NCBI RefSeq assembly: GCF_030684315.1
Contig: NC_081369.1
Location: forward strand, 2,780,689 to 2,844,688
Reading direction: 5' to 3'
DNA: 64,000 nt
DNA from: Stegostoma tigrinum
Lineage: Eukaryota
Shown: positions 300 through 62,439 of the stretch, piece by piece
Position numbering within the stretch: position 1 is the first letter of the stretch
Layout: each line of letters begins with the position of its first letter
Translations under genes and position numbers: made by a program
Notes under the pieces: model-generated
The model's input: the letters and a program-made list of their open reading frames with translations, nothing else
Database searches by the model: none
Told to the model about the DNA's origin: nothing

Positions 300-490
300 G
301 ATGGCCAACGGCCCAATGGTATTATCTGGAGACACATGTTCAAATCCCGCTGTGGCGACCGTTTTCCAGATCTGGAAAAGATCTTTCGTGGGAGAAAATC
401 GCCTCCCTTCTCTGGTCTGGCCTGTATGAGACTCCAGACTCATTGTAAAGTGGTTGACTCTTAACTGCTCTCTGGGCAATTGGAGATTTT
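300..490 (+). mobile_element. Deu-domain SINE (SacSINE1-like) fragment
   Basis: ctggtctggcctgtatgagactccagac...tggttgactcttaactgctctctgggcaatt is the same family as the better copy at 45565-45910 (-). Confidence 0.55.
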
Positions 491-670
491 GATTTATTAT
501 TGTCACTTCTACGGAGGTACAGTGACAAATGTTGTTTTACATGCTTTACAAGTACATCGGAACGTACAGGTGCATCAGGGTAACAAGATGCATGTTCGTC
601 CGTCCCTTTGTTTTGCTGTTGGAATGTACTAGTAGTGTTTTAATACATATTTCCATCAATTTATTCGCTA

Positions 671-900
671 TGCCACCAACTCCACATCTGCCCGATCAGT
701 TCCTCACTCTCCTCTGCACAACAGGGGAAATTCATGTAGTTTGGTATACATCTGAGATCAACGCAACAGAAGTGTGGAAAGAGGGGAGTTTGTTTAAAGT
801 TCCCAGTGTTCTCAATCGTGTGGAGAGCGGATCGGCTTTCCGTGCTAGATTTTCCACACAACACTCAAGCCCCCAGCTAGTGTCAGTTACACGATTCAAG
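671..900 (+). pseudogene. Degenerate C1-set exon of receptor pseudogene A (paralogue of gene 1 exon 3)
   Basis: Reads PPTP-HLPDQFLTLLCTT-GEIHVVWY...KEGSLFKVPSVL, then after a frameshift C*IFHTTLKPPASVSYTIQ. This matches gene 1 C1 (PPTP..TLLCAT..EINITWY..KEGLYQISSYL..CEISHVSLYVPANDSY). The acceptor is TA instead of AG, the donor is G|at, the GFFP segment is deleted, and there is an in-frame TAG. Confidence 0.85.
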
Positions 901-2309
901 ATGAGAAATGTGAGCCTTTATTACTGTTTCTCAGACCCTAGTGTTGTGCGACATCCCGTGACCTATTTGATTCATTTTTAAAGTGTGATAGTGAAAAGCG
1001 CCACTGTCTGTAGCTTTTGCTTTCTTTTTGGCGAGGAACCTGACAACATGGCGTGATGTAAATTTGGTGGTACAACTTAGAATGCGGACTATAAATTTCG
1101 TAGCTAATCCATTTCATTCTCATGGCCTGAATTATTGACGATAGACCAGTGACATTGTGCATTTATTAGACATCACTTCATTTCACAGCATCCATGGACT
1201 TTCTACATCAAGATTTTTGCATGGCTTCTAATGACAGATGCAGAAGTGCAGGTCAAAGAATTGTTGAGAATCAAATTAAAAAAGACTTTAGTTCGATTCA
1301 GATGTGATCTAAACTCGATTTACATTTGGGAGGTTGCATAAAGTTTGCTTTGGCAATGTAATCGAAATAAACAGGGCTCATGACAGGTATGTTGGGGTAT
1401 AAAATAAGCGTGAGTAATAGAGCAGAGAAACTGCTGTCATTACGTTCAGAAAACTAAACGCCTGAAATCACTGGTATGACAGTGTAACAAAATCTAAAAT
1501 ACTGGTTGACTAATAGAGCCAAATCAATAAAACAAAATGGCTTTAATTAACCTGTCATTAGTAAGTGTCGTCTTGATTCTGTAACCCAGTCCTGGGCACT
1601 TGGTGAGAAAAATCTGAAGAATGTCCATCGGTTACTATACGTTTAAAAGAAAATTTCCAAAGTTATTGTGATTTCAGCATTTAAAATGGATAAACGTCAG
1701 AAGGTATTAATTACACAATGAAGGGGCCAGACTGTGTACATGTAGGTTTTATTTATCATCCCATTCCTTTTATTAAAGTCAATTGACTTTTTCCTGTATA
1801 GTTGTGGTTAATTTTTGAGCCACAATACAATAGTTGGCCGGTGTGCAAAAGCCTACCTAGATCCTCAAAGGAGGTGGGCTCTACCTGCTGCGTGTGTTGG
1901 TCACTGTTTTCAAAACGATCTAATTCTCAGCTGTTTCTATTATTTTTGTCTAATTACTTTTCTGTAATTTACACAGAGCTATTTAATTAAATTTAATAGA
2001 CACAATGATACTTAGAGATATGACACACAAATAAACAAACTTGCAGCAATATAGTCACATACATACTCTGAACTTGATTAACATTTGAAAATTATTCAGA
2101 ATTGATAGTCACGTTATATGTTATCATCTGTCACATTTTGTCAGGCTCAACTTTATCCCGAATAATGAATCAGGTGGAGCGTGCGTTGTACCCTCCATGA
2201 GAGACGATGTCCAAGTTATCGTCCTGGCTTTTTATGGTAAATTTGCTTTATTATTTATAACAGTCTTCTCTGCTGAATGGAAACATTCAACTTCTCCTGC
2301 ACCTTCCAG

Positions 2310-2429
2310 GCAACGGCAACCGTAACTTTCCAGACGCGTTGGTGCCTGAATGTGCAGTGGACGGGTTAATAGGTTTATTGTCTCTTGTTGCAATTCTTGT
2401 CAAGCGACGGATATCAGGCAAAACTGCAG
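2310..2429 (+). pseudogene. Transmembrane exon of pseudogene A
   Basis: Polypyrimidine acceptor cttctcctgcaccttccag|; 120 nt, phase 1-1. Reads GNGNRNFPDALVPECAVDGLIGLLSLVAILVKRRISGKTA with donor G|gcaagt. Aligns to the gene 1 TM (VAGCAVAGLLLLVLVIVVILCK). Confidence 0.75.
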
Positions 2430-2489
2430 GCAAGTTCTGATAGAACTCTGTTTAGTTGTTTTGTTTGGTCTACTCATTGTTGAAAGTTG

Positions 2490-2670
2490 TAACAGGGACT
2501 GGGTAAAATCCAGACTCAGATCTAGATATTCAGAGCAATGCAGATATCATTCAGAATGCTTGGCTTTCCTGGGTCTCAGTGCTCAAAAGCAGGCAACGCC
2601 TGAAGAGGAACCCTTAAGAATAATATGTCCATATCTCGATATTAATGTGAACCAAGGCTTTGGTCTCTAG
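2490..2670 (+). pseudogene. Possible cytoplasmic-tail exon remnant of pseudogene A
   Basis: Directly follows the TM exon and is conserved with 47523-47700 (-): ATPEEEPLRIICPYLDINVN vs ATSENEPFRTICQHLSIKVN. Splice acceptor not defined. Confidence 0.35.
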
Positions 2671-3129
2671 AATAAATGCCAATGATAATGTAGCTAGTCT
2701 AGATTAAATACCTTTAATGCTGAAACAGGGAAGGGGATCAATCGTGAATGAGAAAGTGTGAAATGTGCATTTGCAAAAGAATATATTGGACTTTAGACTA
2801 AATCGAATCCATAAGTCGAACCTGATGTTATTTTCTATTGATGTCAAATGTGGCCACTTTAATCCAATATTGGGGAGCTCTTCATGCATCAATTTCATGA
2901 TAACTTTTATTGTTGATATGAGTTTCATTCTCCAATAGGAACAGAGATTACTGAGGACGTACCAGACCAGCTGGAGCCACAGGTTAGTTTCATTCTCATC
3001 CAATCAGAACTTAAAATATGGTGCACCTTGGCACCATAATTATAGGAATTGCACTGAAATAGCAGAATTGTTTTCCGTTATGGCAGAACAATCCGTGAGT
3101 CTGGCCGAGTTAGCGTATCTTTTACTTCG

Positions 3130-30275: not shown

Positions 30276-31010
30276 GTTTGTTTCTTGATCATGTTTGTTA
30301 TTTGAGAAATAGAAAGTTGTTACAGCATACAACACACATACATCATTATTTCCTGAACTGCTGTGACATCAGAGCACCTCATGCCAAGCTCATCCATTCC
30401 TAATGATGCATTTGCCCTAAATACATGGTTAATGATCACTCAATTCTGCGATGACACCCATACATAACTAAACCACCAGTTTCTGCAAACTATTTACATT
30501 GTGTCACTGTAGATTGGATAGTTATTCAAGTGTACAAAGTGGCATATCCTCACTCAAAATATAACAGAAAATGTTGGCATATTCAGCAGAACAGGCCAAA
30601 GCTGTGAAGAGAAACATCTAAAGTACCTGGTGTAAGACATTTGATCATTTTCCATTAATTCTGTTATCCGCTTGTATTGCCCACATGAAATTCTATATGA
30701 CATGCACGGATTGAAAGGGTGCTGTCATTATTCAAGTCCAGCCATAGTCTTTCTGTTCCATTGAATTCTAAAAACCGGGCATTTGTTTTGTTGTTCATCA
30801 TTCCATTTCTATGTCTCAGGCAAGTCAATTGTGAATGCATATTCACAGAAATGCTTATTCTCAATTTGTATGTATTGACAAGTGGTTTGAAAATTGCCTG
30901 CAGGACACATATGCCTGGAAGCACACTTTTCACTGTTGGGTGATAAGGTTTTAAGTGCAGGTAAATGGCATCTGGGTGACGAATTGCTCAAGTGAAAGCA
31001 ATTCTGATGC

Positions 31011-31148
31011 AAGATAACAAAGTGTGAAGCTGGATGAACAAAGCAGGCCAAGCAGCATCTCAGGAGCTGCTTGGCCTGCTGTGTTCATCCAGCTTCACAC
31101 TTTGTTATCTTGGATTCTCCAGCATCTGCAGTTCCCATTATCACTGAT
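31011..31148. mobile_element. Short Penelope-derived insertion with a fold-back inverted repeat and 15-bp TSD
   Basis: ~46-bp inverted arms with one mismatch. Direct repeat gcaattctgatgcaa at 30998-31012 and 31149-31163. Confidence 0.75.
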
Positions 31149-31371
31149 GCAATTCTGATGCAATTTTGGTTTACTACACTCAGGCAGGAGCTTGTTCTTA
31201 TCTTCCACGATCATAGAATTTGACTGAATCAAACAATAACAGTATAACCACAAGATCAATGCTGTTATCCTTTAAGCCTGATTTATCTCATGTATACTGT
31301 TAGCAATTTTTGATGCTGCACTGTACTTATAATTAAGACTCAGATGGTATTTCTATAATATTTATCTTCAG

Positions 31372-36280: not shown

Positions 36281-37219
36281 ATCTCGGACTCTAAGAGGTG
36301 ACCAGGGCCATCTCTGGCAGAGCCCAACCATTCCTACACTGTGGTAACTGCTGCTGCTGGTTTGGCCCCAGCTCTGACCCCATCACCCCGCAAGCTCTTT
36401 GTTCAGAGCCTGAGGGTAAAATGTTATGCCCACTTGGACATGCCAGCATGAAGGAGATGGCCTGTGTCATTGGTCCATCATCCATTTCACAGCATCTAAA
36501 ATGTATGGCAAAGCTGTCTTTTTCCTTCAATTTGAGCAGGCTGGGAATGTGGCCTTGGAGAAGGGGTTAACGTTGGGCATCGCACATCTTGCAGCTTGCT
36601 GCCAGGGAGGTTCTCCTCCTTCCCCACTTGCAGCAGCTCTGGGAAGTGATGTCAGGGGTAGCCCTCATTCTACTTGGGCTGAAGGACAATGTCGTCTGCG
36701 ACATCGACTCCTTGCCGTGACCGCTCCTCATCAGTTTGTCCTGGGAGGTGATGACTGAAAAAGCATTCACTGTGCTCCATGGTCGGGGGAGGTGCCTATT
36801 GTACCTGCTAGATGGCAGACATCATGTGGTTCCATGTCTGTAAGGAGCTGAGGGGTACATTAAAAAGTGTCACACCATCGCCAAGCCTCCCAGTCACACG
36901 GGCAGCTATGGCTGTCACTGCTGTGATCATCCCTCCTCTGAAAACAAAACCTCAAGCCCAGGCCAGAGCACGCCACTGTCCCAGCCTATGGTGAGGGGAG
37001 ATGGGGGTGAGAAACCTCACAGAAGGGAGGTATGATACAATGTGAAGCATATAGAGGCAGCCCACCCTCCTCACCGCTCCACCAGAATGTGTCTCCCGCC
37101 ACCTTGAAACTTCTTGCGCAACTCCTCGGGTCCAAATCCCAATCTGGGTTTCCCAGCACAGAAATGGCCTTGTGGCATGCACCAGAAGGGCCACAACACA
37201 ATGGTGTCGAGCTCGTCCT

Positions 37220-38080
37220 TACCACCTCACCATGATAATACCAAACCCAGTCCCCAGTTATTAACATCACAGCACAGTAAACCTGAACTCAGTCATTAAC
37301 ACCTCGGCACGACAATCCTAAACCCAGTCAGTAACACCTCAGCATTGTAATCCTAAACCCAGCCTTTAACACCTCAGCATGATAATCCTAAACCCAGTCA
37401 TTAACACCTCAGAGTGGCAATCCTAAACCCAGTCTTTAACACCACAGCACGACGATCCTAAACCCAGTCTTTAACACCACAGCACGACAATCCTAAAGCC
37501 AGTCTTTAATACCTCAGTCCAGTAATCCTAAACCCATCATTAACACCTCGGCACGATAATCCTTAACCCAGTCTTTAACACCTCAGCACGGTAATCATAA
37601 ACCCAGTCTTTAACACCTCAGCACGATAATCCTAAACCCAGTCTTTAACACATCAGCACGGTAATCCTAAACCCAGTCTTTAACACCTCAGCACGGTAAT
37701 CCTAAACCCATTCTTTAACACCTCAGCACAGTAATCCCAAACCAAGTCTTTAATACCTCGGCACAGTAACCCTAAACCCAGTCTTTAAAACCTCAGCACG
37801 GTAATCCTAAACCCAGTCTTTAACACCTCAGCACAATAATCCTAAAACCTGTCTTTAACACCTCAGCATGGTAATCCTAAACCCAGTCTTTAACACCTCA
37901 GCACAGTAATCCCTAACCCAGTCATTAACACCTCAGCACGGTAATCCTAAATCCAATCATTAACACCTCAGCACGGTAATCCTAAACCCAGTCTTAACAC
38001 CTCAGGACTGTAATCCTAAATCCAATCATTAACACCTCATTGCAGTGATCCTGATCCCAGCCTTTAACACCTCAGCACAG
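37220..38080. repeat. Minisatellite, 35-bp unit x ~24
   Basis: Consensus taacacctcagcacggtaatcctaaacccagtctt. The period was checked at 37621, 37656, 37691 and 37726; the edges are more degenerate. Confidence 0.95.
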
Positions 38081-38619
38081 TGAACATACTTCCCTCTGCC
38101 ATTCATTACCTTGGCACATGTGTCCCAAGTTCAGCCAGAGATTGTGGTGATGGTCTTCCCTGGACTCATCTCTCTCCCGGCCTTTTATGTTTGTTGAGTG
38201 GCTCAAGAGGGTGCAAAACAGACTGAGGTTAATGGGAGGCTGGAAAGCTTTAGAGGAATACAGGCCAAATGCAGGCAAATGGGATGAGTTTAGTTTGGGA
38301 AATATGATCAACATGGCTAGGTTGGCCCAAAAGGTCTATTTCTGTGCTGTGTGACTCTCTAACTCTTGATATTCTGAATTCTCCAGAAGAGGCTGACTGC
38401 TTTCTGCTGAAATATCCCACATCTCTGTTGATCTGTTGTTGAGTCAACAACCTGGTGCCTGGGGTTTGTACTTCAGCTGTTTTGATCAATTTTGTGCAGA
38501 TGCTGCTGTTCCTCAAGTTGCTCTAGTAAATTCATGATAGAATTTTCAACATTAGCTCAAAGTAGATTGCACTCATCATTATTTTCTCCAGGAAAAGCTG
38601 GAATTAATCTGTAAATTAA

Positions 38620-45139: not shown

Positions 45140-46245
45140 AGACATTAGGATGCAGGTTTGTGGTTCCTTCAAAGTGGATTCATGAGTAGACAGAATAGTG
45201 ATGAAGCCATTTGGTATGCATGCCTTTACTAGCTAGTGCACTGAGTACAGGAGTTAGCAGATCATGCTGCGGCTCGACAGAGCATTGATCATGCCACTTT
45301 TAGAATACTGCATTCAATTTGAGTTTCCCTGCTCATGGAAAGATGCTGCAAACATTAAAGTGTTCAGAAAAGATTTATAGAAATGTCACCAGGGTTGCCT
45401 GGATTGAGCTGTAGGGAATGGCTGAATAGGCTGGATCTAGAAGTGCATTCCATGGACCATCAGAGGATAGGGGGGTGGGGTAATCTTACAGATGTTTATA
45501 AAATTATGAGGGTCTTGGCTAGAGTGAATACCCAAGGTCTTCTCCCAGGGTAGGGGAGTCAAATTTCTTTATCCTTTAATCGTTGAGAGGACGAGGGTGT
45601 CACTGGCTAGGCCACAATTTATTGCCAATCCCTAATTACCCAGAGGGCAGTTCAGAGTTAACCACATTGCTGTGGGTCTGGAGTCACATGTAGGCCAGAC
45701 CAAGTAAGGATGGCTGTTTCATTCCTCGAAGGGTATTAGTGAACCAGATGGGTTTATTCCAACAATTGGCAATGGATTCATGGTCACCATTAGTTTCTTA
45801 ATTCCAGATATTTATTGAATTAAATTCCACCATCTGCCACGACGGGAAACAAACCCGGGTCCCCAGAACATTACCCAGGTCTCTTGATTAACAGTCCAGT
45901 GATAAGACCACAAGGGTATTGACACCCAGCCCCTCACCTCTGCTACTACCACCATTCAAGGCAGAAGTTTAAGGTGAGAGAGGAAGGTTTAAAAGGGAAC
46001 TTACAGTCATTTTTTTTCTTGCAGAAGGTGGTGCATATCTATAGTAAGCTATCAGAGGAGGTGCTGAAGTCTGGTTCAACAACAGCATTTCAAACACCAT
46101 CTAGATGGATACATCAATATGAAAGGTTAAGAGGACATGCTCCGAATGCTGGCAAAGGAACCACATCAGTTGAGGATATTCTGGTCAGCATGAACAAGTT
46201 GGACTGAAGAGTGTGTTTCTATGTTGTACACCTCTATGACTATTA
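45140..46245 (+). mobile_element. CR1 3' fragment split by a Deu-domain SINE (45565-45910, -)
   Basis: CR1 RT-end sequence lies either side. The insert contains ccagagggcagttcagagttaaccacattgctgtgggtctggagtcacatgtaggccagacca. Confidence 0.75.
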
Positions 46246-47770
46246 GGGAATGCTGATAGGATCATTTGAAGAATGTTGAGAGCATTTTCTTAAAGAACAT
46301 AATGCTGTCAGGGATGACTCAAGTTGATTGAACTGCCATGCACTGCTCTTACTGTATAAATATGCTATATTTTATAATGCTGCAGAACTGACCCAATTAA
46401 CCAGCCTCATCTACTCTTAACTGAACAAACAAACGCACCTCACATTTCAGTGGACCAACTTTAAAACTTTGATGAATACTGTATTGCGTTGTGTCTTTTG
46501 AATAAATGTTGATTTCAAAGTGCTTATGACTAACCAACAATGTACAGATAGTTTCCATAAGTCATGAGCCATTTGTGACCAGTTCATTGCTGGACATTAG
46601 ACTTTGGATTCTTCATTTGGTTTGTTTAGCTTGATCTTTGCATATTCCATTCCCATTTTCTTACTGTTGCTTTTCTCACTTTTCACGCTCAAGTGTCAGT
46701 TTAATGTCACCACTTTGTTTAGTCTGAGGGAGTAACAATAAAAGATCAGTTGCACCTTACCTTCAAATGATTTGTTCCATTTTGTCAATATACATCTTTG
46801 AGATTAGACACTTGTACCTGGGCCCTCCTGGATGACAGACTCATACCAAGGCATAGATGGAGGGCTCTTCTACATGCCTGGATTTTGGAGTTTTCCTGTG
46901 CTTACCAAAACTGAGAGCTGCATTGGAAGGACTATTCACTTCTCTTCCATTCCTTGCCCGATGACAGATTTTTGAGAATTTTTTTTTGTGCACCACATGG
47001 AAAAAACACCATGCAGTACACAAGAGCCAATTCAGTCAGTCCTCACAAAGACAGATGAATAGAGCAGGGTAGATAGTAACTTTAACTCAGAAATACTCAT
47101 GGTCTGTTCTGTCATGAGCAAAAATAGTACTGCTAACTCAGAGAGTCATTGTAATTATGGTACCAATATACAGCATATTTCAATTTCTGTTTGGTGGGAA
47201 TGGAACTAACTTGCCCCTTCAACTGACCTGGTATGTCTTCGAAAATCTCTGTTCCTGTTGGAGAATGAAACTAATGCGAACAATAAAAGCAATCATGGTC
47301 ATGAGACATGACAAGCTCACCAAAAGTTACATAATATTGGAACAAAGTGACCAGATTCAAAATCAGTTGAAAATAACATTGAGTTTTACTTATGGATTCG
47401 ATATGGTCTTAGGTTCAATATATTCTTTTGCAATGCACATTTCACACTTTCTCACCCGGATTTGCCTGCTGCCTTGTTGCAGGATTAAAGATATTTAATT
47501 TACAGCATTCACACCATCCCCTTCAGTTTTTGCAGAGAGCAAAGGCATGGTTCACCTTAATACTGAGATGTTGACAAATTGTTCTGAAGGGCTCATTTTC
47601 GGACGTTGCCCATTTTGAATACTGAGACCCAGGAGGCCAACTGTTTTTACAAGTATCTGCATTGCTCTGAATATCTAGATCTAAGGCTGGACTGTACGCG
47701 TTCTCTGCTACAACATGCAACAATGAGTGGACCAAACAAAACAATTGAACACGATTGTATCAGTATTTAC

Positions 47771-47883
47771 CGACAGTTTTGCCTGAAGTGCATTGCTTGA
47801 TGAGAATTACAGCAATTAGAGTTATTAAACTGTCCACAACACATCTAGACACCAAGATGAGAAAAAGTTGTTTTCACTGCTGC
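47771..47883 (-). pseudogene. Frameshifted TM exon of pseudogene B
   Basis: Acceptor ctgctag|, donor G|gtaaat, 113 nt (not a multiple of 3). Reads GSSENNF/fs/ILVSRCVVDSLITLIAVILIKQCTSGKTV. Confidence 0.75.
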
Positions 47884-49295
47884 CTAGCAGATCCGGTAAA
47901 AGTAGTATGTTTGCGTCTTGCATAAGTGATTAAGCAAAATCACAATAAAAAGTCAGGACAAAAACTAGGACATGCTTTCTTATGGAGGGTGCAATGCGCA
48001 CTTCATGATATCTTTCAACGTGATGCATAATCGGGTAAATTTTCTACTGAAAAACTGTGACTGATAATAAGTCACACATGCATTATCAGTTCTGAATAAG
48101 TTTAAACTGTTAATCAATTTCATAGTACATATCTGATTATATTGCGACTGGGCTTGATGTGTATTTGTGTGCAATATCCCCAAGTATCATCATGCAGTGC
48201 AACTTCTATGAAATGTAATTGAATGGCTTTGCGCAAATTACAGAAAAGTAATTAAACAGAAATACAATAAAGAGTGGAGAAATTAGATCATTTTGAAAAC
48301 AGTGACCATCAGGCAGAGCAGGCAGGTCTCCGCTTCCTTTTAGGATCTAGGTAGTCTTTTGCACAGAGGCCGACAACCCTAAAGTGGTACAAAAATTCAT
48401 AAATAAAACTATGCAGGAGAAAATCGATTGACTTTAATGAATGGAATTGGATAGTTAAAAAAATAAGCTACACGTACACAGTCTGGCACCTTCATTGTGT
48501 AATTCACATCTCCTGGAGTTCATCCATTTCAAATGTTGAAATCACAACAATTATGGAGTTTCTTACCTGTGAATGTTCTTACGACGTTTTCTCACCAAGA
48601 TACCAATCTGGGTTACAGTGCCGAGAAGGGCACTTACCAATAATGGAGGAGTAGGGCCTTTTTTTTAATAGATTTGACCATGCAATCACCAGTATTCAAA
48701 CTGCTGTCACAGTCCCACGATTGTAGATGTTTAATTTTCTGCATGCAATCACATCAGTTTTTCTTACTGTTAGTTAGCTCATTCAGTTTATACCCCAACA
48801 CACCAGTCGATCCCTATCATTAGCCCTGTTTACTTCAATCACACTGCCAAAGTAAACCTTATGCAACCTCTCAACTGTGAATCGCATCAAAATCGAACTA
48901 AAACCTTGATCACTTTGTTCCGCAACAATTCTTAGACCTGCACAGATTCATGCTTCATAAGGATTCATGCAAAAATCTCAATGTAGAAAGTCCATAGAAG
49001 CTGTGAAATGAAGTGAGATTGATGGCGGCAATAGATCCAAATTATCGCTGTTCTTCACGGTAACTCATGACATGAGAATGAAATCGTTTTGCTACGAAAT
49101 TTATAGTCTGCGTTCTACGTCACATCATTAAATTTGCAGAGTGATATTATGTCACGTCCTGAGCCAAAAAATCAAAAGTTATGAAAGACAAGTCGCGCTT
49201 TTCAGTATCATTATTTAAAATTGCCCTTATAGGCCACAGGACACCACACCAAAATAGGAACCGGGAAACAGTTTTAAAAGTTCACATTTTTTTAC

Positions 49296-49567
49296 CCTGA
49301 ATCGTGTAACTGACACGAGCCGGGAGCTTGAATGCTGTGTGGAAAATCTGACAGGCGTAAACCGATCCTGCTCTCCACATGATCGAGAAAGCTGGAAACT
49401 ATAACATTCGCCCCTCTTTCCATGCTTGCGTCAATTTCAGATGTAAACAGGATAACATTAATATACCAAATTAGATGAATTTCCCCTGAGAAAAAATGGA
49501 GCCGTTGTGCTGAGGAAAGTGACGGGCCGAACGGACAGATGACTAATCTTCACTGAAGTTGGTGGCA
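49296..49567 (-). pseudogene. Degenerate C1-set exon of pseudogene B
   Basis: ag|VPPTSVKISHLSVRPVTFLSTTAPFF/fs/SGEIHLIWYIN..IVSSFLDHVES/fs/GSVYACQIFHTAFKLPARVSYTIQG|gtaaaa. The first Cys is changed to Ser and there are two frameshifts. The N-terminus is near-identical to gene 1 VPPTPVKITH. Confidence 0.88.
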
Positions 49568-49739
49568 CTTTGAACACATTGATTGAAATATGTGTTAAAA
49601 CGCTATTAGTACATTACAAAAGCAAAATAAATAGCGAGTATCTTCGAGGAATAGAGATGAGATAACAATAAGAGTATTTCTTTCGTTTGGAAACACCAGT
49701 AAGCAAAATAAATTCACCAAGACGCCTGAGACAGCAGCT

Positions 49740-51268: not shown

Positions 51269-53433
51269 TTTGACCAAAGTCGATAAAATCAAACTCTCTC
51301 TGCAAGTCGCTGGAAAATATCATAAACGTGCGGTACGGATAGAAGTACTTGAAGATAATATGGTATTGAGGGTGTCGCAATAAATCTTAGCAAATGTAAC
51401 TGTTTCTCCAACATGTGGGCTCTGGTTTCTGTTTGACGTCAGAGTTGACCGCGCATTGTAGAACTTGAAACATTTACTCTCTCATCGACCTTTAACACAA
51501 TAAGCATTTTTGCATGCTTCAAACAATTCCGATTTGCGGCAGCTCTGAACGAATTGTCAAGTTGACCAGCTTGTGTTCACATATCCATGGCAGTGTAATG
51601 AAACAGTCATCTCCATTCACCGTTTTCACTGCACCTCCAAGCATTTGGATGGATGTGTGCTGTGGAAACTCAACTGTACGTCTCAGTAGCACTGTGACTT
51701 TTCTGAATAGGAACGGTGTTTTGGTTTTGAGTCCTTCAGTTGACAAGGCACTCTGCAATTAATTGGCACGCGTGATTCTAACCACATTCATTGAAATTAT
51801 GGAATGGAAAATCATCCCAAATCTCACAAAACGTTGATCAAATGTCTTTCACACGCAATAACTTTTAGGGAAAACAGTTTTTCTAATTGCCCAGCACATG
51901 TTCAGTGTACAGTGCTGCTGGTGATTGTGCAATAATTGTGCACTTATTGTTAGTTTTTTTTTCTGCTGCCGACCTGTTTCCTGTGGTTTACTGGGTCAGA
52001 GTACTGCTGCTAGCAAGGTGCAGTTACTGAGATGGACCTGATGTATATTCTTGTGTCTGGCTGAGACAAGTGCTCGCGATGGAACATTTGCTATCGATCC
52101 TTTCTGTCTTCCATTGGTTTTGTTGGTTCTTCCGAGGAGATTTTGTTTCCTGCTGACTTATCACTTCTGCTGCTGTAACTTCATAATGTTTAACTTTGTG
52201 ACGGTGATCCCAACGAGTGTTTAGTGTTGTTGACCCTGTGTGTGCGTTCTTTTCGTGGAAACTCGATGTTGCTGGTCATGCTTCAGAGTTTCTGCTGGGA
52301 TTACACTCGTGCTGCAGGTGATAGTGCTACTCAATCCTACTCATTAGTGTGGTCTGGTCATCATGTTTATTTTTTAATGAATCCCACTGCTCGTTACCGT
52401 GTAGATCATTTTTCGCGATTGGGTGTTTCGACCATTGTTGGCTCAGTCGTAGTATTGCGAGAATATATGTTGACATGATTGCGGAAAATCTACATGTTTA
52501 AAAACATTCCCTGGTGAATTCTAACAGTTTTACTGAGCAAACATTTCCCAAAGGTGGCGTGAGTATATGTTTGTGACAAAAATGAGTAAGTTTTCTCGGA
52601 ATAACATATATACCTTTTGAATGGGTGCTTCTTGTGATTTGGTTTAATGTTTCTGTGCGTATACCTTACGCGAGTGCCTTGTGTTATTTGTATTTGAAAG
52701 CCAATATGTGTGTTAGTATTATTTTTTGATTACAGGTTTATGGGTGGTATTTTCGTGTGAGTTTATCTTGCTCTGGTGGAATGATTGCCACGTAAATGCT
52801 TCACTTTGTATAGTTGTGTGTATATCAGTGCTTTAGCTGTGTTTTCTGTCAGGTATTGCACCCGTTCATAATCATTACCCAAATAATTGGTTCCAAACCA
52901 ACTACAAGTATTCCCTTATGCATCTGCTCAACATTTGTTTATCCTTTCAATCTGATTGTTCCACTTATTACCTGGTACTTAATGCACTGATCAAGTCCTA
53001 TTTTGAGGTCGGACTTTCAGCTGGGTCTCTGGTACCTGAAATACTGAAGACAGTGCCTTGTCTAGCGAGTTTTGAGAAGATTTGTAGCTCAGGTTGAGGT
53101 TCTGGATGTGATATTGCGCTGAGCTGGAAGGTTAGTTTTCAGACGTTTCATCACTTTTTTTATTTGAAAAAATATACTTTATTCATAAGATGTACAAAAA
53201 AAACATATTTATACACCTACCCAGTCATGCAAGCCGCTCCGGGTTACCCAGGGGGTACATACATCAACTAAAGGGAAAAATAAAACAAAGAAGAAGAAAA
53301 AAACAAAGCAAAAAAAATACCCCAGCAGGTGTCACCCCACACAGTCCCAGTTGGCCCCCTGACCAGTTGAGGAAGGCGCCAGCTGGGCCCAGGTACCAGA
53401 TAAGGCCCTTTTTTCTATTCTGGACGAGGGGTT

Positions 53434-56400
53434 TCATACCATGGTCTTTTCCCACCGCGCCTTGGCGGCGGCTGCCCCAAGCTTTAGCGCGTCCTTCAGC
53501 ACGTAGTCCTGGACCTTGGAATGCGCCAGTCTGCAACATTCGGTCGGGGCCAGTTCTTTCAGCTGGCAGACCAGCAAGTTGCGGGCAGACCAAAGAGCGT
53601 CTTTCACCGCATTGTTGGTCCTCCAGGCGCAGTTGATGTTGGTCTCAGTGTGCGTCCCGGGAAACAACCCGTAGAGCACGGAGTCCCGCGTCACGGAGCT
53701 GCTCGGGACGAACCTAGACAAATACCACTGCAACCCCTCCAGACCTCCTGCGCATAGGCACACTCCAGAAGGAGGTGATCGACAGTCTCGTTCCCCCCGC
53801 AGCCACCTCGAGGGCAGCGTGCGGTGGCGCAGAGATTCCGGGCATGCATAAAGGATCTCACTGGCAGAGCCCCTCTCACCACCAGCCAAGCAATGTCCTT
53901 GTGCTTGTTTGAAAGTTCTGGCGATGAGGCATTCTGCCAAACGACATTGGCAATCTGCGTGGGGAACCACACGACGGGATCCACCCACTCCTTTTCCTGA
54001 AGGGTCTCGAGGATACTACGTGCTGACCACTGCCTGACGGCCTTGTGGTCAACGGTGTTTCCTTTCAAAAATTTCTCCACGAAGGATAGGTGGTACGGAA
54101 TGGTCCAACTACTTGGAGCATTCCGCAGCAACCAGGCCAGGCCCATCCTTCGCAACACTGGAGACAGGTAGAACCTCAGTAAGTAGTGACACTTGGTGTT
54201 TGCATACTGAGGATCTACGCACAGCTTGATGCAGCCGCATGCAAAGGTAGCCGTCAGGGCGAGGGTGCCATTCAGTACACCCTTTCCCCCATTTTCCAGG
54301 TCTTTGTACATGGTGTCCCTGCAGACCCGGTCCATTTTCGACCCCCAAATGAAGTGGAAGATGGCCCGGGTGACCACAGCGGCGCAGGTCCAGGGAATAG
54401 GCCAGGCCTGGGCCACATACAACAGTACCGAAAGCCCCTCGCACCTGACAACCAGGTTCTTACCCGCGATGGAGAGGGACCGGAGCGTCCACCTGCCCAG
54501 CTTCTGCTTCAATTTGGTGATACACTCCTCCCAAGTCTTAGTGCACGCCCCAGCTCCACCGAACCAAACACCCAGCACCTTCAGGTAGTCTGTCCTGACG
54601 GTGAAGGGGATGAAGGAGCGGTCGTCCCAGTTCCCAAAGAACATGACCTCGCTCTTACCCCTATTGACTTTGGCACCCGAGGCCAGTTCAACCTGGCCGC
54701 AGATGTCCAATAGTCTATTCACCGACCGACGATCGGTGCAGAAGACAGCGACATCGTCCATGTACAGGGAGGTCTTGACCTGACGGCCTCTGCTACCTGG
54801 GATAGTCACGCCCTTCAGGCTCACGTCCTTCCTGATGGATGCGGCAAAGGGCGCCACACAGCACACGAACAAGGCAGGAGAGGGCAGCCCTGCCTGACTC
54901 CCGATCTAACAGGGAAACTGTCTGATTCCCACCCGTTGATCGAGACTGCACTAATGATGTTGGCGTAGAGCAGCCGGATCCAATTGTGGATGCCCTCCCC
55001 AAACCCCAATTTGGAGAGGACGTCCCTCATGTAAGCATGAGAGACCCTGTCGAATGCCTTCTCCTGGTCCAGGCTGACGAGGCAGGTGTCCACCCACCTG
55101 TCCTGTACGTAGGCGATCGTATCCCTGATGAGCACGAGGCTCTCAGGGATCTTTCTGCCCGGCACAGCACAGGTTTGGTTAGGGTGAATGACCGACTCCA
55201 GGACAGACCTGACCCGGTTGGCTATGACCTTGGCCAGGATGTTGTAGTCCACGTTCAATAGTGAAATGGGATGCCAATTCTTAATTTCTTCCCTCTCCCC
55301 CTTCCTCTTCTAAATGAGGGTGATGATGCCCTTCCTCATGGACTTGCAAATTTCCCCTGCCCAAAGCGCACTATCGTACACTTCCAGCAGGTCCTGGCCG
55401 ACCAGGTCCCACAGAGCAGAATACAGCTCGACCGGTAAGCCGTCGCTCCCGGGAGTCCTATTCCTATCCAAGGACTTGAGGGCTCTGTCAGGTCGTCCAG
55501 GGATATCGGCCGGTCCAGCCACTCCCTCGTGCCATCTAAGACCTCCATGATAGACGACAGGAACTACTCAGAGGCCGTGCTGTCTGTAGGCTTCATGTCA
55601 TACAGTCCGGCATAGAAGGATCTGCTGATCCTTAAAATGTCGGGCCAAGACGACGTCACCGAGCCGTCATCCTCCTTCAGCCGGCTAAGCACAGAGCTCT
55701 CTTTGTGCACCTTCTGAAAGAAGAAATGCGAGCACATCTCGTCCTGCTCCACGGAGTGGGCCCTGGACCAGAAGATTATCCTGGAGGCCTCTGTGGTGAA
55801 GAGCGAGGCTTGCTGGCCCCTCACCTCGTGGAAGTCCTCCGTGACATCGACCCCCAATCAACTGCAGAATGAACAGGTTCTGCACCCTTTTCTGGAGTCA
55901 CGACTGCTTTCCCCGCCTCTCTCTCGCCTTCCGAACACCCTTGAGGACAAAGAACCTCTTGATGTTCTCCTTCACCGTCTCCCACCAGTCGCCCGGAGAC
56001 TCAAAAAGGGGTTTCATGGTTCTCCAACGGGCATACTCTTAAGTTCCTCAATGTTCTCTGGGGTCAACAGAGTCGTGTTGAGCTTCCACGTCCCTTTGCC
56101 GGCTGGCTGGTCATCCTGTAAGTGACAGTCGGCCAGCAGGAGGCAGTGGTCAGAGAAGAACACCGGCTCGACGCCAGTGGACCTGACCGAGAACGCCCAT
56201 GACACAAACAGGAAGTCTATCCTTGAGCGAATAGACCCGCCTGGCCTTGACCAGGTGTACCTCCGCTGCGCTCCATCTGCAGGGGTGCTGAAGACATCGA
56301 GCAGCTTGGCGTCCTTCACCGTGCCCATCAGGAATCTGGACGTGACGTCTAGTTGACTCCCCCCACCCGCTGTCCCCACGCCGGATCTTCCATCTGCGTC

Positions 56401-56840
56401 GATGATGCAGTTGAAGTCTCCGCCTAGGATGACCGGCCTGGACGTAGCCAGCAGGGATGGAAGCCACTGCAGGACAGCCAAGCACTCATTCCATACCACT
56501 GGGGCGTACACATTGATCAGCCTCAGGGGAGGGTTCCTGTAGGTGACGTCAGCCACTAGGAGGCGTCCCCCACCACCTCCTGAACTTGAGAGATGGTGAA
56601 GTCGTGCCCCCGCAGCAGAATAGCCAGGCCCGAGGACCGACAGTCGTTATCCCCCGACCAGATCAAAGGCCCACAGGTCCAGGCGCTGGACCATTTCCCG
56701 TACCTGCCGAGGTGCGGTATCCCGCACTCCTGCAGAAACAGGAAGTCCGCCTTGACGGTGGTCAGGTAGGCCAATGTGGATACACATCTTGCGGTGGACT
56801 TGACACTGCGCACATTAATGCTCGCAACTCGTACCCCCAT
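53434..56840 (-). pseudogene. Tx1 ORF2p (APE endonuclease, RT, C-terminal Zn motif), broken into at least 6 pieces
   Basis: MGVRVASINVR, FLQEC, LGGDFNC, RIDFLF, FFSDH, LDQEKAFDRVSH, GVRQGCP, YMDD and CPRGGCGGNETVDHLLLEC. Confidence 0.93.
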
Positions 56841-57282
56841 TGTGGGCAGTGACCGCAGTACCCTCCAGAAGTCCAAGGTCCAGCCCCTCCATCTGTCCCT
56901 TCATGACCATTGCCCGGGTTAACTGCTGGACGCTCTCCGGGCTCAGGAAGCCATCCGTGCTGCCTTCCGGGTGGCATCCCCCTGTCGGGGGTGCGGAGGC
57001 AGGAGGGTCCGGCTCTGGGTCAGGCTGGGGACGCGCTGTTTCCACCTTCCCGCCTGGAAGTTCCAGGGTGCCCTCCAGTGCCCCAGCGGCACTTGACCGG
57101 GTGTCGGAGGGAGCCTCAGGACACCTCCCGTCACCTGGAAGTGTGGTGCTGCTTTCCTTCTCCCTCGAGATCTTTAACTTCTGCTTCAGGCAGGACCTCT
57201 CCGAATTCCCCTCGTCAGAGGAGCTCTTATAGCCCCCCTGTAGCTGCCTCTTCCCACCTGATGGTTGCGGTTCCTGGGCCCA

Positions 57283-58260
57283 TCAACGCACCTTCCTCCT
57301 CGCTTTCCGGACTGTTGTCCACTCCCCTGGGTCGCCTGTCACCGCCTCCATCGACTCCAGGTTGTCGGGGGGGAGCGGAGACTGCAGGGGCGCTTTGCTG
57401 GCCTCAGGCCCATCCTGCAGGGCTGGGCCCTCCTGCACATTACTGCGGTCCTTGCTGGGCCCTGGTGCCTTCCTCTCCTCTGGGGGGGCTGGCCCCACAT
57501 TGCCCCTGCTGGCAACCTGGGCATAGGTGGTCCCCCGCTGCGGGCATGCCCTATAGAGGTGTCCCGCTTCCCCGCAAAGGTTGCAGCTTTTCTTTTGTGG
57601 GAAATCCTTTGCAAGGTGTCCCTCCTCCCTGCAGTTTCTGCAGATGGTGGCTTTGCAGTCGGCCGCCACGTGACCTGACCGACCACAGGCATGGCAGACT
57701 TTGGGTTGCCCTGCATAGGTCAGGTAGCCCTTGCTCCTGCCGATTACGAAGCTGGACGATGGGTGTACGATGTTCCTGTCCGCGCCCATCCTCAGCGTCA
57801 CCCTGACCTGCCTCTTACTGGTCCAGATGCCAAAGGGGTCCATGATGTCAGTTAGGTCTCCTTCCACCTTCATGTACCTTCCAAGTAAGGTCAGGACATC
57901 AACTGCTGGCACATGCGGGTTGTACATGTGTACAGTCACCATACGGCTCCTCTGCACTGGCATCACAAACAGCGGGACAGCGGTCAATACAGAGAGGGGA
58001 CCCTCACCTCCTTTCTCCTTGAAAACCTCCAGGAAGCGCTTGCAAAGCTTGGCACTCCTGAAGGTCACATCGTAAAAACCTCCTCCGGGGAAATCCTGCA
58101 GGCAGTAAATGTCCGCAGCAGCGAACCCACAACAGTCCAACAGGACCCTCTTCATGAAGAAGGTGCGGCCCACAGGTACACATTCATCTACCTTCTTCAC
58201 GGCAACGTGGATGGTGTTCCGGACCCCCTGACCTGGGGCACGAGCACTTGCCACAGCCAT
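57283..58260 (-). pseudogene. Tx1 ORF1p (ZCCHC3-like, three CCHC zinc knuckles); original frame probably ran to ~56840
   Basis: MAVASARAPGQGVRNT... with CHACGRSGHVAADC, CRNCREEGHLAKDF (degenerate) and CNLCGEAGHLYRAC. Confidence 0.9.
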
Positions 58261-58459
58261 CGTTGCAGGTTGGCTGCTCCCCTGAACCAGAGTTAGGACG
58301 AAGCCAGCATTAAGATCCACTGGTCGCAAGGGTGCACAGCCAACCTGACGTCTTCCTTTCACCTCCAACACAGCACTCTCCTCCTCTCGGTCCACAAGAA
58401 GAGTGGGTCTTTATTTTATTCCAGATGTAAGCTGGTTCACTGTGCTTGAAGGTTTGTTC

Positions 58460-58500
58460 CCAGATGTTTCATCACCATTCTAGGTAACATCATCAGTGAG
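58460..58500 (-). ncRNA. Minimal hammerhead-ribozyme-like motif (Penelope type), degenerate
   Basis: rc: ctca-CTGATGA-t-gttacc-tagaat-ggtgat-GAAA-catc-tg. It has both conserved boxes, stem II, and short stem I pairing. Two CpG-type changes relative to the expected ggtgac-GAAA-cgtc. Confidence 0.6.
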
Positions 58501-58791
58501 CCTCCGATGAAGCGCTGGTGTTATGTCCCACTTTTTATTTATCTGTTTAGGTTTCGTTTGGTTTGGTGATGTCATTTCCTGCGTTGGTGATGTCATTTCC
58601 TGTTCTTTTTCTCAGAGGGTGGTAGATTGGCTCCAAATCAATGTGATTGTTGATGGAGTTCCAGTTGGAATGCCATGCTTCTAGGAATTCTCGTGCATGT
58701 CTCTCTTTGGCTTGTCCCAGGATGGATGAGTTGCCCCAATCAAAGTGGTGTCCTTCCTCATCTGTATGTAAGGATACTAGTGATATTGGGT

Positions 58792-58997
58792 CAAGATAAT
58801 ACAATGTGAGGCTGGATGAACACAGCAGGCCAAGCAGCATCTCAGGAGCACAAAAGCTGACGTTTCGGGCCTGGACCCTTCATCCAGGCCCGAAATGTCA
58901 GCTTTTGTGCTCCTGAGATGCTGCTTGGCCTGCTGTGTTCATCCAGCCTCACATTGTATTATCTTGGAATTCTCCAGCATCTGCAGTTCCCATTATC
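58792..58997. mobile_element. Penelope-derived fold-back insertion (84-bp inverted arms, 7-nt loop, 15-bp TSD)
   Basis: Arms at 58792-58875 and 58883-58966 with one mismatch. TSD agtgata(t/g)tgggtca at 58779-58793 and 58998-59012. Confidence 0.85.
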
Positions 58998-59769
58998 AGT
59001 GATAGTGGGTCATGTCGTTTTGTGGCTAGTTGGCGTTCATGTATCCTGGTGGCTAGCTTTCTGCCAGTTTGTCCAATGTAGTGTTTACATTAACATTTAC
59101 AGTAAACACCGTTTTCTCTGCACTGACTTTCTCCAGCAATCTGTGTTTTTGTTTCAGGTCCTCAGTAACCCCAGCTCGTTGTTTGATATCCTGCCCCAAA
59201 ATTAGAGCACTAGCTCATTCCAGCCAAATAACTTTAGAGCTCCTACTCTCGTGCATGACCACAACGATGGAAGTCTTCAATAACTAATAATAGGCAAGTC
59301 AGTGCATTAAAAATAAACACAATTTTTTGTTTCGTTTATGTTTTGCAGCATCTGTGGAGAGAAGCTAGAGTTAACATTTCGGGTCGAGTGACCCTTTCTC
59401 AGGAGGAGTTTTCCAGTCATTTCTGTTTGTGTTGCTGTTTACAGCATCCGCCGTTCTTTTCGTTTTTATTCAGCATTTATTGTTATGCTTTCTTGGAACA
59501 TGGACGTTGTTGGCTTGGCCAGTACTTATTGGAAACGTCTAAATGTCCCTGAGAAAGCCGCCTGGGGCTGCCTTCTTAATCTGCTGTCGCCAATGTGGTG
59601 CAGATAAACCTAGTGAGCAGTTAGGGAGGAAATACAGGAGGGTTTCAGAAACGGGGATGGGCTGGCTCTTTGTTGATCCATATCTTTACTTGAAAGTGAA
59701 TTACTTCTCTGTAAACAGTAGAGTTTAGGAGTTTGCTGAAATCTGGCTTCTTGCCCGAATGGCTACATC

Positions 59770-59898
59770 TCTGATGAAGGGTCTAGGCCCAAAACGTCAG
59801 CTTTTGTGCTCTTGAGATGCTGCTTGGCCTGCTGTGTTTATCCAGCTCCACACTTTGTTATCTTGGATTCTCCAGCATCTGAAGTTCCCATCATCACC
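59770..59898 (+). mobile_element. Short Penelope-derived terminal repeat with TSD
   Basis: ctgatgaagggtctaggcccaaaacgtcag...; flanking direct repeat ggctacatctc at 59761-59771 and 59899-59909. Confidence 0.75.
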
Positions 59899-60524
59899 GG
59901 CTACATCTCCCACAGAACTGGAAAGAACGGCATCAGAATAAAACAGTGAAGTTGAAGGCAAGACACTCATTGTCTTAAAGCTTCAAGAAAGAAGCACTGT
60001 CTCTGAGGCTAATTGTCAGAAATCCCCCAAAACCGTGAATAAACAAAATGTTATTCACTATTATTTAATTGCAATTAACAATTTAATTGAGTACATCTCA
60101 ACTTACGTCTAAATTCGCTTCTTAACTGAAGAGCAGGAGCAGACTGAAGAAATCACTGTTCGACAACTTTACATGAGTTCCATTACCATGGTCACGATTT
60201 GGATTTGATGGATGTCTGAGCGAAATAGTCTAGGTGAATGTCAGTGGGTGTCACCGCCAGGGAAGGTGGAAACTTTGTAACAGGGCTGCCCGAAAAAATC
60301 AGCAAAATTAAGCAAATCCCCATCATTCACCAGCCGACTTGACATTTACTTCATTTCATGGAAACCGACTGCGATTTGCACAAAACCTTCTACGTTTTTA
60401 CACAATTAAGTCATTGAGCCAATGACCAGGGAATATACATATGAAATTGAATGCATGATTTGGAGCATTACGGAATACATCCTGGTACTTTTGAAATTCT
60501 AATTAGATTACGAATGCCTTTGAA

Positions 60525-61515: not shown

Positions 61516-61820
61516 GCACATGCTCCTTCTTACAGTGTTTGAAATATTCTTGATCGAGGTGTAAGAATAATTGAACTAATTTGTGACGGATAATCGGATA
61601 CTTCATGTTTTTCACATCAGTGTTCCTTTTCCTAGAAAACCTCTGGATACGTGAAAAAATATTTGCGACAGTTCAGTTAGGGCAGGATTTCAGATAGTGG
61701 AGCAGGATTCAAAGAGCAAGGCATGCTAAAATTCTACTGTGTGAGTGTATTGGATTAATTATGTTATATCATGTGGTCCATCTTCCCTGTTTCATCAGAA
61801 CATGTATCTTTTGTTAACAG

Positions 61821-62132
61821 TTGCTGTGTGCACTTCGAACAATGTTACTCCGAATGTTATGCTAATAAGGACCCTGATACAGTCAACAGTTACCATGCGA
61901 TGCCCTTTCTCCTTCGAACTCAACCACTCAAACATAAATGTTTACTGGTTCAGAGAAGGTAAAAAGATGCTTCTCCAGGACGACAGCAGAGCACTCTTTC
62001 ATGTAAAGAGAGGGGGAGCCTACCTTCATCTCTTCAATGTGACTGTCCGGGACGCTGGAACATATTTCTGTGCAGTCAAAAATCAGCATCAAACGGTTGA
62101 TAACAAACCCTCTGCGCAACTTGATGTCTACG
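61821..62132 (+). CDS. Gene 2 exon 2: Ig V-set domain
   Basis: Acceptor ttttgttaacag|, donor G|gttagt, 312 nt, phase 1-1. Reads VTMRCPF..VYWFR..YLHLFNVTVRDAGTYFCAV..AQLDVY. Confidence 0.93.
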
Positions 62133-62439
62133 GTTAGTGCAAACAGAGTTAAACGTTAACGTTTGGCTCCAATGAACGATGAATGTGTTAGCAAAAAATT
62201 TTTTCGTAAACATATACAGTGCATATAAAAGCGTTCACTTCTTTGGAACCTTGTGTTCAACAATGTACACAACAAAAACACATCATAGTAACATTACACA
62301 GTTCAGCAACTGCACTATGTCAGCAACTGGTTTTTAGTTATGGAGTGGAGAAAGCTAATGCAAAACTTTCATGTGAGGCACTTCTTACAATGTGAGCTTG
62401 GAGTAACGGAGTGAATTTGTCTGGAGCTTATTGGCAATA

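Follow-up and report, generated by a model that had tools for sequence, protein, structure and literature searches.

The stretch of DNA analyzed here (hereafter the window) spans 64,000 nucleotides of the Stegostoma tigrinum genome (assembly GCF_030684315.1, contig NC_081369.1, positions 2,780,689 to 2,844,688), a vertebrate genome of 3.2 Gb. It carries a 5.3-kb long interspersed nuclear element (LINE) with two open reading frames (ORFs) at 58476-53155, nested in the remnant of a Penelope-like element and seated within that element's hammerhead ribozyme motif; LINE and host repeat both lie on the minus strand. Upstream of the LINE, the Penelope remnant (58476..59090, outer boundary approximate) comprises a GIY-YIG end and a terminal repeat, and is interrupted at about 58792-59003 by a fold-back repeat resembling a short interspersed nuclear element, whose inverted arms (58792-58875 and 58883-58966) form a near-perfect 84-bp pair and which has kin near 31010-31150 and 59770-59900. 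Adjoining the LINE is the 5' half of the hammerhead (58477..58500), made up of the 5' strand of stem I (58500-58497), the core CTGATGA (58496-58490), and then the 5' strand and loop of stem II, as assigned from the description of minimal hammerheads in PMC4209133. We number positions from the nick in the target, such that -1 is 58477 and +1 is 58476; core nucleotide A6 is then -17 (58493, an A, the target allele, in the window copy), G12 is +7, stem III is +10 to +13, and the predicted cut falls after +14.

The LINE itself begins with a head (58420..58476), in which the 57 nt that follow the nick in the target recur in diverged form. The 3' strand of stem II, the GAAA motif, and a nonpalindromic stem III (58465) lie within this head, as do the predicted cut (58463/58462) and a stop that ends the Penelope reading frame at codon 18. 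Behind the head follow the 5' untranslated region (UTR) proper (58261..58419, common to 40/40 scored copies at 96-100%), ORF1 (56815..58260), ORF2 (53434..56840), and a 3' UTR (53155..53433) with a polyadenylation signal and a short A tail (53161-53155), after which the Penelope target resumes at +2 relative to the nick and continues to where the Penelope tail ends (53063..53154). The original prediction, made from the window sequence alone, had placed Penelope sequence directly after the A tail from 53154 and had given a 30/36 core match between head and 3' flank; the former is indeed what the window contains, and recomputation returned the same value for the latter. It had also called the element largely intact, which it is not: ORF1 has a premature stop at 57283-57285, and ORF2 is split into several frames by frameshifts and stops. 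The window copy is about 92-93% identical to other copies of its family.

The exact pattern of the 3' tail occurs 2,744 times in the genome, so that the family numbers at least 2,744 copies, and these are directed to a single site in the Penelope terminal-repeat hammerhead, as had been proposed. All of the 30 best-matching 3' ends abut this site, as do 67/67 tails examined among the first 68 exact-pattern tails of one contig, a sample unbiased by the query; insertions at unrelated locations, which would have spoken against the proposal, were not among them. The 3' ends begin at +1 or +2, apart from one at +8 that has no A tail. The junction linkers vary, two adjacent start positions are used, and tandem copies arise when an insertion hits the head of a pre-existing copy, including heads whose core is broken; these features together indicate independent insertion events. 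Empty target sites number about 14,500 (14,329 by exact pattern vs 0 for reversed-pattern controls, so the motif is not a product of chance). Judged against PMC4209133, the empty site is a minimal hammerhead that combines the core motifs CUGANGA and GAAA with two stems, I and II, and a stem III that is palindromic (10,505 intact sites); an Rfam scan of the window gave no match at gathering score. In the folded empty site, stem II has a pairing probability of about 1.0 and stem I competes with other folds, and self-cleavage of this motif is predicted to occur after C17. In two copies (L097 and L166) we observed chimeric 3' flanks in which a patch of element-type head runs into the Penelope tail; these are possible footprints of head-flank excision, or of aborted insertions.

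With regard to affiliation, the ORF1 protein contains a pair of ZCCHC3-type RNA-binding domains plus CCHC knuckles, and the ORF2 protein combines an APE endonuclease, a reverse transcriptase (RT), and a zf-RVT domain; together with the A tail this is the architecture of the Tx1 clade, and the 67 tails at one site go beyond the threshold for target specificity used in PMC4494074, by which over 20% of flanks fall in a single sequence. The best matches of the RT are unnamed amphibian, turtle, and fish proteins (up to 53%), and a search of solved structures matched only human L1 ORF2, weakly. Two further proteins, BAD04856 and BAC82621, reportedly from elements of Kojima and Fujiwara, match the RT at 38-39%; look-ups returned no Tx1 label for either. 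We call the element Tx1-like, a designation that reflects architecture and specificity rather than an established place of its RT among named Tx1 elements. The target repeat can be assigned to the Penelope-like elements from RT matches in its longer copies, its inverted arms, and its terminal repeat with the hammerhead; GIY-YIG matches in the longer copies are weak and lie below the Pfam cut-off. Among 60 unbiased LINE copies, 43 retain the 5' head, and several of the truncated ones are halves of inverted pairs. From a separate set of 106 copies, three with less than 3.5 kb of cover were dropped. Many copies keep both ends and have internal deletions (L136, L138, L142, L143, L149, L154) or inversions (L139, L145), and in one (L243) the LINE is reduced to the final 23 nt of its tail, bordered by the target flank on its 3' side and immediately preceded by Penelope sequence.

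The 57-nt repeat at the 5' end is carried by the element, and is not a target site duplication (TSD). We compared head and local flank in 56 nontandem copies with both ends (59 minus three tandem pairs) and found that they differ at +17 in 52/56 and at +18 in 53/56, and that at +12 the head has A and the flank G in 32/56. These differences exclude an ordinary long TSD, uphold the earlier suspicion that the repeat is too divergent for one and independent of the local target, and dispose of the possibility that it always equals the local 3' flank. Head variants at +22, +29, and +30 track the phylogeny of the LINE body (p=0.001). A pre-existing tandem Penelope repeat was likewise rejected, with 30/30 heads continuing into the LINE 5' UTR.

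When the element inserts, its head stands where the 3' half of the target ribozyme had been, and the state of the rebuilt motif differs markedly from that of empty sites. By genome-wide patterns, 815/1,742 junctions vs 134/14,463 empty-type sites (815:927 vs 134:14,329; odds ratio 94) have A6U, a substitution in the core that lies 17 nt upstream of the nick, and 3/10 sampled "empty" A6U sites were in fact junctions. An intact core is found at 185 junctions (about 10%) vs 10,505 empty sites (about 73%), the denominators of these percentages coming from slightly different patterns. In a fetched set from which query-biased central sites and sites without upstream Penelope sequence were excluded, the corresponding counts are 8/113 and 25/41. 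Four alleles between -20 and +14 are enriched at junctions at p<0.02 (-17, +7, +10, and +12), all at positions of the core or stem III and none in stem II; CpG changes at +6 and +11 that keep a wobble pair show no significant enrichment (p=0.1 and 0.81), whereas the core-breaking changes at +7 and +12 are enriched. Penelope hammerheads have reportedly been treated as dimers by Lunse et al. The window junction does not have the palindrome of a dimer stem III (15.2-16.2), reading ACAT at 58467-58464 where empty sites have the self-complementary ACGT, and so does not rebuild the full minimal hammerhead that had been read into it. This palindromic pair is constant in minimal Penelope hammerheads (PMC4209133), and A6 and G12 belong to the hammerhead core, with changes of A6 giving low activity (PMC3088659); in our literature search, no paper named A6U itself.

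The upstream alleles also reveal the state of the RNA from which each copy was made. Element alleles lying upstream of the predicted cut are present at 92/113 junctions vs 4/41 empty sites, and the RNA templates of those junctions must therefore have been uncut at that point. A control is provided by Penelope copies with two arms: the LINE-bearing arm has T and the empty arm A at -17 in 19/30 (the empty arm has T in 0), and at marker -70 the arms agree in 26/30. Overwriting by the element thus reaches -17 and rarely -70, and a preference for a Penelope subfamily already bearing A6U is ruled out. C or G at -17 occurs at only the background level (35/1,777 junctions), and linkage is seen between T at -17 and the +12 allele of the element (44/51 vs 32/54, p=0.002), which together indicate that the T is templated and not random. 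Transfer of element alleles follows a gradient, from about 95% at +17/+18 through about 70% at +12 to about 47% at -17; some junctions are patchy, with T at -17 alongside target bases at +17/+18, and 4/113 have small deletions at -19 to -17.

Despite this partial transfer, A6U persists. From the oldest to the youngest quartile of copies, T at -17 is found in 14/25, 11/23, 9/23, and 10/26 (56, 48, 39, and 38%), with no significant difference, and the oldest and youngest groups differ at 86/4,456 non-CpG sites. Amino-acid changes are depleted among shared relative to private variants in both ORF2 (18:22 vs 1194:394) and ORF1 (27:22 vs 648:199), which points to purifying selection on both ORFs over many source generations and rules out a single long-lived source locus. 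Because an allele absent from about half of new copies should vanish within a few source generations, we infer that source copies are selected for A6U or something linked to it; the likely cause, judging from the positions affected, would be escape from self-cleavage, since loss of this activity is one cause that could cover all four core alleles.

The account that we regard as reasonably probable is that of a site-specific LINE that carries its own head, is copied from an uncut transcript shared with the Penelope element, joins its 5' end by homology, and has sources selected for a disabled ribozyme. The endonuclease would nick the target between loop II and stem II. RNA synthesis would start at least 17 nt upstream of the nick, probably under a promoter in the Penelope terminal repeat, as suggested by the location of the target just past the apparent Penelope start codon; the RNA, transcribed from upstream Penelope sequence, likely stays uncut. 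The end of the cDNA would then anneal to the target over about 74 nt of homology and prime the second strand, which may account for the uniform junctions and the many 5'-complete copies, and in this way alleles of the element would replace those of the target over part of the upstream sequence. The head may be an old captured flank propagated with the RNA, and core-breaking alleles would be kept because cleavage would strip both cap and homology arm. The surroundings of the nick suggest a further step. The Penelope frame opened by tandem ATGs remains open through the tail in 28/36 empty sites and is closed at codon 18 in 107/118 junctions, and the ORF of the anole element likewise starts at stem II, with a promoter thought to lie in the terminal repeat (PMC11167929); the LINE therefore seems to insert immediately after the Penelope start, where it would inherit the promoter. 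We hold it possible, albeit somewhat doubtful, that the LINE is in this sense a hyperparasite, which lands past the start codon, takes the promoter, closes the frame, and has repeatedly evolved a disarmed version of the host ribozyme, through which its transcription has to pass. If so, selection on source copies would be genetic evidence of RNA cleavage by minimal Penelope hammerheads in the germ cells of animals.

Several points weigh against a role for the ribozyme in this account. In vitro, cleavage by minimal hammerheads is poor (PMC4209133), and that of the anole requires its protein and has left no cleavage ends in RNA-seq data (PMC11167929); with cleavage so weak or protein-dependent, the motif may never cut the LINE RNA. 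The tree signal of A6U is weak (25 changes vs 31.2 when shuffled, p=0.018) and absent from a shorter alignment (p=0.71), although a weak signal is what partial transfer would produce; signal is also present at -32 (p=0.007) and at the 3' flank marker +22 (p=0.022), which we read as covariation with age. A6U is partly redundant with the better transmitted stem III change at +12, such that ribozyme death alone does not fully explain its persistence; two of the four core alleles fall on readily mutated CpG sites; and A6U removes the first of the two tandem ATGs at the apparent Penelope start, a second possible cause. Taken together, these points leave room for an alternative that we think unlikely but deserving of serious attention, in which targeting and homology-primed joining operate as described, the ribozyme is irrelevant, and T at -17 is kept by loss of the upstream ATG, by a role in the promoter or start site, or by long overwrite tracts that refresh promoter-proximal target sequence. 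The closing of the Penelope frame by the head fits such an account, as does the persistence of A6U where +12 has already changed. Nevertheless, two other upstream ATGs are untouched, the changes at +7, +10, and +12 spare the ATGs yet fall on the core, and the distinction between wobble-keeping and core-breaking CpG changes would go unexplained. Selection for a stabler 5' hairpin was rejected as a separate cause: although -17 and +12 pair in the predicted fold, the two alleles together alter the ensemble energy by no more than +0.1 to +1.0 kcal/mol, and in the same test the rank of -17 is 61-71 of 126.

The original prediction had instead proposed that the host half and the element half form an active hammerhead that frees the LINE RNA from the Penelope transcript, as in R2 elements. 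The head does lengthen stem I to 4 bp, 185 junctions do have an intact core, and GAAACGTC is intact in 20% of junctions with A at -17 vs 9.7% of junctions with T, which leaves room for a cut class of roughly 7%. However, the 92/113 junctions that transmit alleles from upstream of the cut are the reverse of what an RNA 5' end set by ribozyme cleavage would give, stem III is broken at the window junction, and among the 16/134 heads without stem II upstream, 0/16 begin at the predicted cut. As the main route, self-cleavage is refuted; a cut-RNA route can account for at most about 14% of junctions, a limit set by the 185 intact cores after correction for decay, and a share of about 7% is more probable. 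As a general model we consider self-cleavage very improbable. Equally little credence attaches to the idea that every insertion creates the T at -17 afresh, with no need for selection, for example as a nontemplated A on the cDNA of an RNA starting at -16. Such an origin would suit the near-constant frequency of T (about 47%) in all age classes, the weak tree signal, and the few small deletions nearby, but it conflicts with the background level of C and G and with the linkage to +12, and it requires the RNA always to start on a U and the second nick always to fall at one place. The least credible proposal is that the Penelope machinery multiplied one old insertion, or a few, in composite form, with no endonuclease specificity: the tree signal of the 3' flank marker and the rare variants shared by doubly occupied paired arms (1-25 per pair, 7 pairs) are set against varied 3' junctions, tandem arrays, purifying selection on both LINE ORFs, upstream markers at -70 to -142 without tree signal, and differences at subfamily sites in 6/7 paired arms.

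Insertion into other transposons is known among Tx1 elements, including Xenopus Tx1 (into Tx1D) and the crocodilian Tx1-Mar, Tx1-8_Crp, Tx1-4_AMi, and Tx1-9_AMi (PMC4494074), and the present family resembles these in being a two-ORF, APE-type LINE with one preferred site in another mobile element and with tandem insertions. It differs from them in that the target is a Penelope-like retroelement and the site lies within its ribozyme, the Tx1 targets described in the text of PMC4494074 being DNA transposons, LTR elements, snRNA genes, and microsatellites, and in that a diverged copy of the target is carried in place of an ordinary TSD. The closest parallels to the joining are found in R2: the earwig element carries 22 bp copied from the downstream target, with substitutions at three positions, and for R2 RNA with upstream 28S sequence the uniform 5' junctions are explained by a cDNA-target heteroduplex, with junction variants propagating with the RNA (PMC3774820). 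R2, however, relies on a restriction-like endonuclease and on an active HDV-like ribozyme of its own, whereas here the ribozyme is the target's and is defective at most junctions, and transmission of upstream alleles is incomplete. The empty site for its part matches the minimal type I hammerheads of metazoan Penelope elements in its core, the additional base that follows A9, a stem II of 6 bp, a short stem I, a palindromic stem III, and its position at the apparent Penelope ORF start (PMC4209133, PMC11167929); it is at LINE junctions that about 90% depart from these by having no intact core. In the literature covered (Repbase and subscription journals lay outside it), we found neither a Tx1-like element targeting a ribozyme in another retroelement nor the combination of a Penelope ribozyme target, a core broken at junctions, and a carried diverged head; the supplements of PMC4494074 list more Tx1 targets, which could bear on novelty.

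A ribozyme inside another retroelement would thus be a new target class for Tx1-like elements, and an APE-type endonuclease of such specificity is of interest for targeted insertion. The approximately 1,800 junctions with marked alleles constitute a natural map of LINE 5' end joining, and if the core changes were selected against cleavage, they would bear on the in vivo function of minimal Penelope hammerheads. Among the matches listed from contigs of other organisms, we observed Penelope sequence and LINE pieces about 80% alike, none bridging the junction, from which we draw no inference.

Fold-back Penelope copies (G000:C1) often have the LINE in both arms (e.g., L225/L226, L237/L238, L240/L241, L265/L266); by eye, the first 100 tails include 12 outward-facing LINE pairs, about twice a rough expectation. 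Several pairs have lost their centre, and the sharing of rare variants between paired occupied arms suggests conversion between inverted copies. Elsewhere in the window, a tandem array of about 26 units of 35 bp occupies 37183-38111, and one long repeat is present as two diverged copies in opposite orientation (378-3003 and 45627-49631, with pieces 71-85% alike). An open frame on the plus strand at 61745-62137 resembles, by eye, an exon for an immunoglobulin V-type domain.

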